Shown: in pieces, positions 3,081-4,092 of the stretch
Layout: each line of letters begins with the position of its first letter
Numbering within the stretch: the first letter of the stretch is position 1
IMG/VR virus record: IMGVR_UViG_2698536559_000008
Location: 1 to 7,222 of that record
Origin: a virus
Taxonomy: Duplodnaviria; Heunggongvirae; Uroviricota; Caudoviricetes
Length of the DNA: 7,222 nt
Strand: one strand, 5' to 3'
The notes under the pieces: generated by a model
What the model was told of the DNA's origin: nothing
Seen by the model: the letters and a program-made list of their open reading frames with translations, nothing else
The model's database searches: none
Program-made: the position numbers and the translations under genes

Positions 3081-4092
3081 AAAGGTGAAAACCGGCAGTT
3101 CATCCAGTAAGTCAGTATTGACCTGGCTTGCTGATATGTGCGGTGCCGATTTGTGTGCATACCCGTCTGTATCTGCACTGGCAGAAGTAACGGAACTGAA
3201 CAAAAAGACTGTGCAGGACAGCTTACGACACCTGATGGAGATTGGGTTAATTGTTGATACCGGTGAGAGAAAAGGCCGGACAAAACAAATTGTGGTGTAC
3301 CGACTTATCGGTGTTGAAGAAAGTGTTACCGAGGATGAATACACCCAAAAACGGGAGTCTTTAAAGGTAGGTAAAATTGGTACTGTTAATAAAAACAGAA
3401 CCGAAAACGGTTATGTTTCAGCACAAAACAGCCCCAAAAACGGAACTCTTTGCTGCATGGAAAATAACCAAAGACACCCAAATTTTCCATCAAAGACACC
3501 CAAAAACGGATCACGGAACCCAAAGGAACCCAAAGATTTAAACCCCACACATAACGCACGCGAGAGTGCTCCGACCAGTGAGCAGGAAGTTTTGTCGTTA
3601 CAGGCAGTCCCCCCTGTATTCCTGGATGGCCTGAGCGAACCCATCGGAAAATTTCCGATGACCGATAACTGGTATCCGTCACGGGATTTTCGACGACGGG
3701 CTGCGTTGTGGGGGATGGCTTTGCCGGAGACAGAATTCACACCTGCTGAACTTGCCGCATTCCGGGACTACTGGGCAGCGGAGGGGAAAGTGTTTACGCA
3801 GGTTCAGTGGGAGCAGAAATTCGCCCGTCACGTAAATCACGTCAGGGCGCAGGTTAAACCAGTCAGCAAGGGGGTAAACCATGCAGCAGCACCAGGTGGA
3901 ACCGCATCACGGGCAGTTCAGGAAATTCGGGCAGCACGTGAGCAGTGGGAACGTGAAAACGGATTTATCAGCGACGGAAACGGCCTGGAAGCTGTGGGAG
4001 CTCATGGGGGAGGTTTATTCGAACCGCTGGACCCAGAAGAACGGGGCCGCACCTTCGAAGCTCTGGATTGCACAGATTGGCGCGATGACTGA
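3052..4092 (+). CDS. Phage replication initiation protein (lambda O-like role): N-terminal winged-helix DNA-binding domain, low-complexity linker, C-terminal DnaT-like domain; 346 aa
   Basis: Preferred start is ATG 3052 (MSIDALRWAKKV...), overlapping the upstream gene by 29 nt; the ORF-track start at 2977 is a probable over-extension. N-terminal wHTH (SVSALAEVTELNKKTVQDSLRHLMEIGLIVDTGERKGRTKQIVVYRL); C-terminal block DNWYPSRDF...FTPAELAAFRDYWAAEG...QWEQKFARHV is typical of phage replication proteins with a DnaT-like C-terminal domain. Stop overlaps the start of the P-like gene. Confidence 0.8.
   Translation: MSIDALRWAKKVKTGSSSSKSVLTWLADMCGADLCAYPSVSALAEVTELNKKTVQDSLRHLMEIGLIVDTGERKGRTKQIVVYRLIGVEESVTEDEYTQKRESLKVGKIGTVNKNRTENGYVSAQNSPKNGTLCCMENNQRHPNFPSKTPKNGSRNPKEPKDLNPTHNARESAPTSEQEVLSLQAVPPVFLDGLSEPIGKFPMTDNWYPSRDFRRRAALWGMALPETEFTPAELAAFRDYWAAEGKVFTQVQWEQKFARHVNHVRAQVKPVSKGVNHAAAPGGTASRAVQEIRAAREQWERENGFISDGNGLEAVGAHGGGLFEPLDPEERGRTFEALDCTDWRDD
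3341..3535. repeat. Iteron-like direct repeats (ACACCCAAAAACGG family) inside the O-like gene linker; candidate origin of replication
   Basis: ACACCCAAAAACGG at 3341-3354 and 3496-3509; variants ACAGCCCCAAAAACGG (3427-3442), CAGAACCGAAAACGG (3396-3410), AAGACACCCAAA (3471-3482) and GGAACCCAAAGGAACCCAAAG (3516-3535). AT-rich stretch at 3361-3420. Architecture parallels the lambda ori inside the O gene. Confidence 0.5.

Follow-up and report, generated by a model that had tools for sequence, protein, structure and literature searches.

The 7,222-nt stretch of DNA considered here, hereafter the window, is the early-right region of a lambdoid prophage of Escherichia coli. It carries a replication module in which an O-like initiator gene is followed immediately on its 3' side by a gene for a P-type helicase loader, whose start at 4085 overlaps the initiator stop. 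Within the initiator's own coding sequence, at 3341-3535, lies the array of short repeats that is the subject of this analysis. The gene order given in Table 1 is based on the RefSeq annotation of the corresponding locus in E. coli O103:H2 strain 12009 together with Pfam. Between positions 2900 and 4200 the window is 99.9% identical to that strain and 100% identical to two complete genomes, and of 5,426 complete E. coli genomes, 907 contain a full-length match; compared with the 'PPompW' prophages of O145:H28, the window is 96.8% identical.

Table 1. Genes, protein domains and repeat elements of the window, in order of position (aa, amino acid residues; PWM, position weight matrix; pLDDT, predicted local distance difference test; ssDNA, single-stranded DNA).
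Feature	Positions	Strand	Basis or score	Encoded peptide and remarks
cI/DicA-like repressor gene	1834-2241	-	RefSeq/Pfam	
Cro-like gene	2318-2545	+	RefSeq/Pfam	
YdaT-like gene	2529-3080	+	RefSeq/Pfam	
O-like initiator gene	3052-4092	+	RefSeq annotation of 99.9% identical 12009 locus	346 aa; WP_000020574.1, 'DnaT-like ssDNA-binding domain-containing protein'
N-terminal winged-helix domain, presumed iteron-binding	3052-3321	+	AlphaFold pLDDT 89-97	aa 1-90
Iteron 1, ACACCCAAAAACGGGAGT	3341-3358	+	PWM 18.7 bits; 5/7 arm pairs complementary	T-Q-K-R-E; starts at codon position 2
Degenerate iteron, TAGGTAAAATTGGTACTG	3368-3385	+		G-K-I-G-T; aligns with ACCAAAAACGGGAC in Scandinavium, Enterobacter, Kluyvera
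Iteron 2, AGAACCGAAAACGGTTAT	3397-3414	+	PWM 15.3 bits; 6/7 arm pairs complementary	T-E-N-G
Iteron 3, AGCCCCAAAAACGGAACT	3430-3447	+	PWM 22.3 bits, highest in the window	S-P-K-N-G-T
Hybrid/inverted variant, ACACCCAAATTTTCCATC	3474-3491	+		H-P-N-F-P; third frame, starts at codon position 3
Terminal iteron, ACACCCAAAAACGGATCA	3496-3513	+	PWM 18.3 bits	T-P-K-N-G-S; GATC at 3509-3512
Tail repeats, CGGAACCCAAAGGAACCCAAAG, GAAYC pentamers 10 bp apart	3514-3535	+	Tandem Repeats Finder, 3515-3535	Candidate unwinding or half-site element
Mosaic joint, AAAGATTTAAACCCCACACAT	3532-3552	+		Rac-SA53 ydaU homology begins here; conserved in other Enterobacterales loci
DnaT-like ssDNA-binding domain	3652-3852	+	Pfam PF17948, 62.8 bits (cut-off 25)	aa 201-267
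Lambda-P-like helicase loader gene ('replication protein P')	4085-4546	+	Pfam PF06992, E = 9e-16; BLASTP against lambda P, E = 4e-7; RefSeq	
DUF1627 gene	4579-5325	+	RefSeq/Pfam	
paa, AcfC-family adhesin gene, cargo	6185-6943		RefSeq	

The initiator is predicted to consist of two structured parts joined by a long disordered linker, the AlphaFold model having pLDDT values below 50 for residues 93-194 and being confident again for residues 200-270. The original prediction had placed the repeats in the linker between a DNA-binding N-domain and a DnaT-like C-domain, and Pfam and AlphaFold agree with it: the array encodes residues 97-161. In the model the N-domain has helices at residues 17-29, 40-47 and 51-64, followed by a beta-hairpin at 67-85; its Foldseek matches are generic winged helices of the MarR/ArsR/TFE type, the Pfam HTH_36 match at residues 36-67 is weak (E = 3e-4, below the cut-off), and a profile search of solved structures returned nothing significant (best E = 0.3). 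The C-domain matches Protein Data Bank entry 6aep in sequence (E = 5.9e-19) and superposes in Foldseek on the host DnaT structures 6aeq and 4ou6, with target-normalised TM scores of 0.83-0.91 and 54-57% identity. In contrast to its host counterpart, it stands in a phage initiator, fused to a putatively origin-specific winged helix, and the N-terminal part of DnaT is absent. The best PHROG matches are replication initiation proteins. No pairwise similarity to lambda O is detectable (BLASTP E = 2.3; no Pfam Phage_rep_O match at E < 0.01), and the sole link is that the N-domain and that of lambda O (residues 1-172) match one and the same profile region of the 'O-like' families phrog_678 and phrog_345. 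A distant common ancestry of the two N-domains is plausible, and the initiator would not be filed as a member of the lambda O family (Phage_rep_O / PHROG 277).

The most conspicuous repeat, CCCAAAAACGG, occurs exactly at 3344, 3433 and 3499, with the variant ACCGAAAACGG at 3400, and no further exact copy was found across the 7.2-kb window. When up to two mismatches are allowed it has nine matches against 3.0 expected, a number reached in 0 of 200 shuffles. A repeat search returned a 17-nt family of four copies (3338, 3394, 3427, 3493) and CAAAGACACCCAAA at 3469, 3491 and 3521, while Tandem Repeats Finder reported 2.1 units of GGAACCCAAA at 3515-3535. The interval 3341-3535 as a whole holds four strong 16-18 bp copies, all on the + strand, two degenerate copies and the GAAYC tail, and the six copies, in direct orientation within 3341-3513, all lie in the initiator's own coding sequence; the earlier count of at least five copies or variants in about 200 bp is borne out. 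The degenerate copies can be detected only through alignment with four other Enterobacterales loci. That at 3368-3385 probably does not bind, since its matrix score falls below 6; that at 3474-3491 holds the place of CCGTTTTTCCC and CCCAAATTTCCC elements in relatives and was aligned to GTACCGTTTTTCCCTT. The spacings in the window, 28, 28, 33, 44 and 22 bp (56, 33 and 66 bp between strong copies), fit a period of about 11 bp, and helical phasing holds for this array. Across the family described below, iteron spacings peak at 17 and 24-25 bp, and phasing was therefore rejected as a defining property. The only terminator-like matches near the array are the iteron palindromes themselves, on the minus strand.

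Relatives selected independently of the repeats supplied the central test of whether the constraint lies on the DNA or on the peptide. An alignment of N-domains only (86 residues, diverse homologues) yielded 67 loci in species-representative genomes, among them Scandinavium, Enterobacter, Kluyvera, Providencia, Proteus, many Acinetobacter, Achromobacter, Noviherbaspirillum, Aromatoleum, Polaromonas and Sphingomonadales. Within these loci the 330 bp that follow the N-domain hold 79 raw occurrences of the 7-mer AAAACGG, as against about 40 in the other ~194 kb. The 20-mers around such sites gave the consensus A-GTCCC-R-AAAA-CGG-GAC, which contains the 16-bp palindrome GTCCCR-AAAA-CGGGAC and in which two C's outside the seed are conserved at 95-98%. 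The sites are imperfect inverted repeats with an A-tract centre, and in many relatives the terminal copy is perfectly palindromic. A 16-bp PWM trained only on the loci of other species, so that the window sequence was never used, recovers the four strong copies of the window (at 3342, 3398, 3431 and 3497, all on the + strand, with the scores listed in Table 1). No other site in the window scores above 11.3 bits, and block shuffles would be expected to produce 0.03 matches of at least 10 bits in the array interval. Over the 67 loci, matches of at least 12 bits have a density of 7.2/kb in the 400 bp after the N-domain and 0.10/kb elsewhere, a roughly 70-fold enrichment. For 28 of the loci, from which training sites were taken, this figure is partly circular, a reservation that applies neither to the raw 7-mer count nor to the window scan. 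At least two matches are found in 54 of the 67 loci, and 186 of 193 lie on the coding strand.

Throughout this family the arms remain GTCCC/GGGAC and the central hexamer is clade-specific, being AAAAAC or GAAAAC in most loci, AAATTT in a few, and AACGTT or AACAAT in an Acinetobacter subfamily whose N-domain carries a 7-residue insertion. Arrangements vary as well. Vibrio phage Her has five perfect 24-bp tandem units of AATAGGCCCGAAAACGGTACTTTG (positions 1880-2010 of its locus), and the Aromatoleum locus has seven AAAACGG copies (about 1775-1950), some merely 17 bp apart. In a metagenome-assembled genome assigned to Leadbetterella (Bacteroidota) the N-domain is 47% identical and is followed by only one motif match; all other matches being from Proteobacteria, this locus may result from a binning error or represent a divergent type of origin.

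The distal end of the array is a conserved module across the family. In 57 of the 67 loci it reads AAnAGTCCC-nnnnnn-GGGAC-AC-GGAAYC and then continues with one or two more GAAYC pentamers; the window version is ACACCCAAAAACGGATC-AC-GGAACCCAAAGGAACCCAAAG. Among 53 distinct loci that carry this anchor, at least one additional GAAYC follows within 45 nt in 52 and at least two do so in 38, at intervals of 10-13 bp, compared with a background of 0.11 per 45 nt. The pentamer resembles the right arm of the iteron, CGGAAC, and in Burkholderia phage Bcep176 a fourfold tail repeat, GAACAGTAG, continues the right-arm-plus-spacer sequence of that phage's iterons. Acinetobacter loci have TAAAAATAAAAAA after the third pentamer, an element that the window does not have. 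The minimum of GC content in this part of the window, 25% at 3360-3399, corresponds to the decayed iteron and a spacer, and it was rejected as an unwinding element because it aligns with an additional iteron (ACCAAAAACGGGAC) in relatives. Directly after the tail repeats, 48 of 51 distinct E. coli haplotypes of the initiator gene (93-100% identity) have a C at 3538, which creates AGATCT and with it a GATC Dam methylation site at 3535-3538; the window has a T there and is without that site, and it keeps the GATC of the terminal iteron.

A further argument comes from the modular make-up of these initiators. In the Rac-SA53 prophage, homology of ydaU to the initiator begins exactly at 3532 (residue 161) and runs at 87% amino acid identity through the DnaT-like half into the P gene, so that both modules share a DnaT-like C-half and a P-like loader. 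The N-half of Rac-SA53 YdaU is an unrelated DUF1376 region, and its coding sequence contains no convincing iteron repeats. Edwardsiella phage EPP-1 has an N-domain 75% identical to that of the window and near-identical iterons, including ACACCCAAAAACGGGAGTCTTTAAAG, and its close relative P0018 has a different C-domain of the Phg_2220_C type (PF09524). PHROG 391 joins a window-type N-domain to a lambda-O-type C-half, and the initiator gene is followed by a putative replicative helicase gene in Acinetobacter phage AP22 and by a gene for a DUF6475 protein in Bcep176. The array accompanies the N-domain in every one of these mosaic cases, as would be expected if the N-domain recognises the array. 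Four isolated and sequenced phages, AP22, Bcep176, Vibrio phage Her and EPP-1, have the full architecture, which is therefore no artefact of prophage decay. Viewed as a unit, the N-domain/iteron cassette has been found with at least four partners: DnaT-like, lambda-O-like and Phg_2220_C C-domains, and short C-terminal regions with a helicase or DUF6475 gene. The joint AAAGATTTAAACCCCACACAT, at which the unrelated N-halves (winged helix here, DUF1376 in Rac-SA53) give way to homologous sequence, is kept in Scandinavium, Enterobacter and Kluyvera, and may either serve as a site of recombination at the module boundary or belong to the origin.

Together with the analogy to lambda, these findings point to the interval 3341-3535 as the origin-recognition array (ori) of a lambda-style replication module, a reading to which we assign a probability of roughly 0.8. 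An origin inside the initiator gene is textbook knowledge for lambdoid phages; the arrangement here is thus an expected one, which the comparison over many bacteria bears out with unusual clarity. The proposal that the locus mirrors the lambda arrangement of ori within O is supported by what was found, namely repeats within the initiator gene directly upstream of a lambda-P homologue. The literature searched contains no earlier description of this origin family, of its palindromic consensus, of its coding in three frames or of its GAAYC end module, which is weak evidence of absence. Several observations weigh against the origin reading, in addition to the partial circularity of the matrix enrichment noted above. 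The window copies are poor palindromes, 3-6 of 7 arm pairs being complementary. Near the array, neither a DnaA box within one mismatch nor an internal promoter was found, and a GC content of 40-45% across 3480-3559 leaves no distinct AT-rich tract next to it. The literature searched reports no binding or replication results on the array or on members of its family. Within E. coli, the three upstream iterons are as polymorphic as their spacers (14/48 against 18/80 over the 51 haplotypes), and they give no signal of purifying selection (p = 0.41). A C-to-T change at 3408, present in 35 of the 51 haplotypes, turns the core of iteron 2 into the weakened AAAATGG, and a G-to-A change at 3442 does the same to iteron 3 in 10 of them (AAAACAG). 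Finally, the PPompW prophages examined are reported to be defective and not packaged (PMC8112680).

The last of these points bear most directly on the possibility that the array derives from a genuine origin family and is a relic here. In that case replication of the prophage would no longer start there, and the array would survive only because the initiator open reading frame has not yet decayed. The defective state of all PPompW-type prophages examined would fit this explanation, as would the variability of the upstream iterons, the weakened alleles of iterons 2 and 3 and the degeneration of one ancestral iteron, and the upstream polymorphism may reflect relaxed selection in a domesticated prophage. 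Set against this, both O and P retain intact reading frames in the window as well as in the 907 E. coli genomes with full-length matches; the window keeps the alleles that better match the consensus at 3408, 3432 and 3442; and PPompW genomes still excise and circularise after treatment with mitomycin C (PMC8112680). The terminal iteron and tail, moreover, are the least polymorphic stretch of the gene, with 2 of 39 sites variable as against 252 of 1002 elsewhere (p = 0.002, for a region picked post hoc after inspection of the data): the iteron has a single singleton polymorphism among the 51 haplotypes and the tail one polymorphic site in 23 bp. We therefore regard the relic explanation as rather unlikely, and within the origin reading we rate the disuse of the array in this particular prophage lineage about the same.

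Two other explanations would deny the array an origin function altogether. The repeats could bind the initiator or another protein for regulatory ends, with the true origin elsewhere, and so serve autorepression or a roadblock to rightward transcription, titration and handcuffing, or the exclusion of related phages. Plasmid iteron arrays do also titrate and handcuff their Rep proteins, cloned lambda ori iterons inhibit phages with lambda-type replication (PMC3349717), and the want of an obvious AT-rich element beside the array would be easily accommodated. A conserved terminal iteron with its GAAYC module, in fixed polarity toward the loader gene, is nevertheless hard to square with titration alone, and neither the window nor the related 3-kb loci contain a second cluster of the motif. 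Such regulatory roles can coexist with origin function and usually accompany it. To our knowledge, arrays of this sort serve as the origin in all origin-within-initiator systems described, and a purely regulatory function appears improbable. Least credible of all is a lack of any DNA-level function, the repeats having arisen through selection for a repetitive peptide linker or through simple slippage and duplication in low-complexity coding DNA. The segment is indeed disordered and compositionally biased, and whole units have been gained or lost among relatives, including a 30-bp unit in some Enterobacterales loci that is missing from the window. Yet across the 67 loci the same motif lies in all three codon phases (62, 89 and 35 cases, giving PKNG/PENG, PKTG/PTTE and SQKR), occasionally on the other strand, and the window copies alone use all three (TQKR from position 2; TENG, PKNG and PKNG from position 1; HPNFP from position 3). 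That one motif is translated into unrelated peptides argues for selection on the DNA and not on the peptide. When five genera are aligned, the third codon position is unchanged at 10 of 13 sites in the four iteron cores (p = 3.6e-5 against the N-domain) and 10 of 15 in the tail (p = 2e-4), as against 5 of 26 in the spacers and just 15 of 86 in the N-domain, a value that implies near-saturation of synonymous sites; 10 of 11 core positions of iteron 2 and the whole 11-bp core of the terminal iteron are invariant across the five genera. The imperfect palindrome itself is conserved from Acinetobacter to Burkholderiales, and the pattern that would have spoken for the peptide, a conserved linker encoded by diverging repeats, was not seen: from Enterobacterales to Acinetobacter and Burkholderiales it is the DNA motif that is kept and not the peptide. 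The peptide-repeat explanation was rejected on the grounds of the three-frame reading and the conserved synonymous positions. As had been supposed, the DNA repeats account for the odd N/P/K-rich segment, CCC AAA AAC GG being read as PKNG and C CAA AAA CGG as QKR; judged from the sequence, the linker is a by-product of translating DNA sites.

If the array is indeed the origin, a plausible course of events can be drawn from lambda O/ori and from iteron replicons. After derepression of the rightward operon, dimers of the initiator N-domain would occupy the palindromic iterons and assemble a bent nucleoprotein complex, which the terminal iteron would position beside the GAAYC repeats. There the duplex would open, most likely from the GAAYC region into 3536-3560. 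The DnaT-like C-domain could then hold the single strand, dock the P-like loader or its complex with DnaB, or do both, and the P-like loader would deliver host DnaB for loading.

The closest parallel is lambda itself, in which the iterons are imperfect inverted repeats that are bound and bent by O, and in which iterons beside an AT-rich tract suffice for unwinding (PMC7466680). The lambda record has four 18-bp iterons, TCCCTCAAAACGAGGGAA, TCCCCTAAAACGAGGGAT, TCCCTCAAATTGGGGGAT and TCCCTCAAAACAGGGGGA, 20-24 bp apart in the middle of O, followed by an A-rich tract and then P. As in lambda and in the six-iteron origins of the Shiga toxin phages 933W and P27, the array is found midway along the initiator gene, where the interdomain linker is encoded. 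Shared with lambda, too, are imperfect palindromes of 16-19 bp in which an A-tract centre separates a C-rich from a G-rich arm, uniformly oriented so that the A-rich strand is the coding one; a copy number that varies among relatives, the copies at the distal end being best conserved; a Phage_lambda_P homologue encoded immediately downstream; and the reading of iterons in different frames, which in lambda gives IPQNEG, SPKTRD and YPSKQGD. The protected terminal iteron and tail match the lambda iterons nearest the unwinding region, which are essential (PMC7466680). The differences extend beyond the lack of pairwise similarity between the initiators. The C-domain is DnaT-like and not lambda-O-like, the arms are 6 bp apart where those of lambda are 9 bp apart, the spacing is irregular at 22-56 bp as opposed to 20-24 bp, GAAYC repeats stand where lambda has an A/T-rich tract of about 40 bp, and the P homologue is annotated with 153 residues compared with 233 for lambda P.

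Iteron plasmids (RK2 oriV/TrfA, pPS10 RepA, F RepE, R6K pi) offer a second comparison, in that they too pair a winged-helix initiator with repeated sites. The short repeats that adjoin the array at helical-turn spacing recall the 13-mers of the plasmid unwinding element, which plasmid Rep proteins bind as single strands (PMC4081077). The contrast between palindrome and half-site likewise recalls the dimeric and monomeric binding modes of Rep. Here, however, the iterons lie inside the initiator coding sequence, a single winged-helix domain is modelled and not two, no DnaA box or clearly AT-rich unwinding element was found near the array, and helicase loading would proceed through a phage P-type loader. 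Membership of the plasmid Rep family (Rep_3/RepA-type) was ruled out on account of the single winged helix, the intragenic repeats and the missing DnaA box. Closer to hand in E. coli, the Rac prophage of K-12 carries the experimentally known oriJ (PMC3945230), and its ydaU-ydaV module occupies the same place in the lambdoid early-right operon (repressor, cro/ydaS, ydaT, initiator, loader). In K-12, by contrast, YdaU belongs to DUF1376, and YdaV is annotated not as a P homologue but as a putative ATP-binding protein. Because the K-12 module is so unlike that of the window, and because the Rac-SA53 variant, in which only the C-half is shared, has a DUF1376 N-half without repeats, homology between oriJ and the array was rejected.

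It is tempting to speculate that the winged-helix N-domain, the palindromic iterons and the GAAYC repeats make up one portable origin-recognition cassette, found from Enterobacterales to phages of Acinetobacter, Vibrio and Burkholderiales and fused to exchangeable recruitment domains, whether DnaT-like, lambda-O-like, Phg_2220_C or other, and that the GAAYC pentamers, and not an AT-rich tract, are its melting element, bound by the initiator as half-sites or as single strands. We put this forward tentatively, as a possibility toward which we do not yet lean. If true, melting at GAAYC would resemble the DnaA-trio or TrfA-13-mer mechanism, which has not yet been described for lambdoid origins.

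With regard to its wider meaning, the analysis places a likely replication origin in a very common E. coli prophage type, including that of O103, O145 and O45 Shiga toxin-producing E. coli, at a locus where the annotation shows only a 'DnaT-like' protein. It also supplies a simple signature by which origins could be located in a wide family of initiators not yet studied experimentally, namely copies of GTCCCR-AAAA-CGGGAC after an HTH_36-type domain, ending in GAAYC repeats, and a clear case of overlapping constraints in which a protein linker appears to be dictated by DNA sites in all three frames. Should the origin be active, in situ over-replication of neighbouring cargo after induction could follow, affecting the paa adhesin gene and the type III secretion system effector loci of PPompW-type prophages. 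Since an origin of this kind is no novelty in principle, the result should be of practical use chiefly for annotation and for choosing experimental constructs.

Some features of the surrounding genes deserve mention. The first 29 nt of the initiator gene (3052-3080) are also the last of the YdaT-like gene, and this overlap, together with that between P and the initiator stop, suggests translational coupling along the operon. The P frame is open from an ATG at 3881 (221 residues, 3881-4546, + strand), well ahead of the RefSeq start. In this longer frame the Pfam Phage_lambda_P match begins 9 residues before the annotated start and covers profile positions 32-161 in place of 60-161; PHROG 15931 (482 residues) contains the O C-half and P as a single protein. 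A P start further upstream, a 200-nt O/P overlap and O-P fusion forms are all possible. Directly downstream of the replication module, the interval 5490-6943 holds a frameshifted fimbrial pseudogene and then paa. At the other end of the region, just 3' of the end of the cI/DicA-like repressor gene, a 22-bp tandem repeat with internal dyad symmetry, TGTAGAAAAACACAAGTGTTTGG, occurs twice at 1748-1791.

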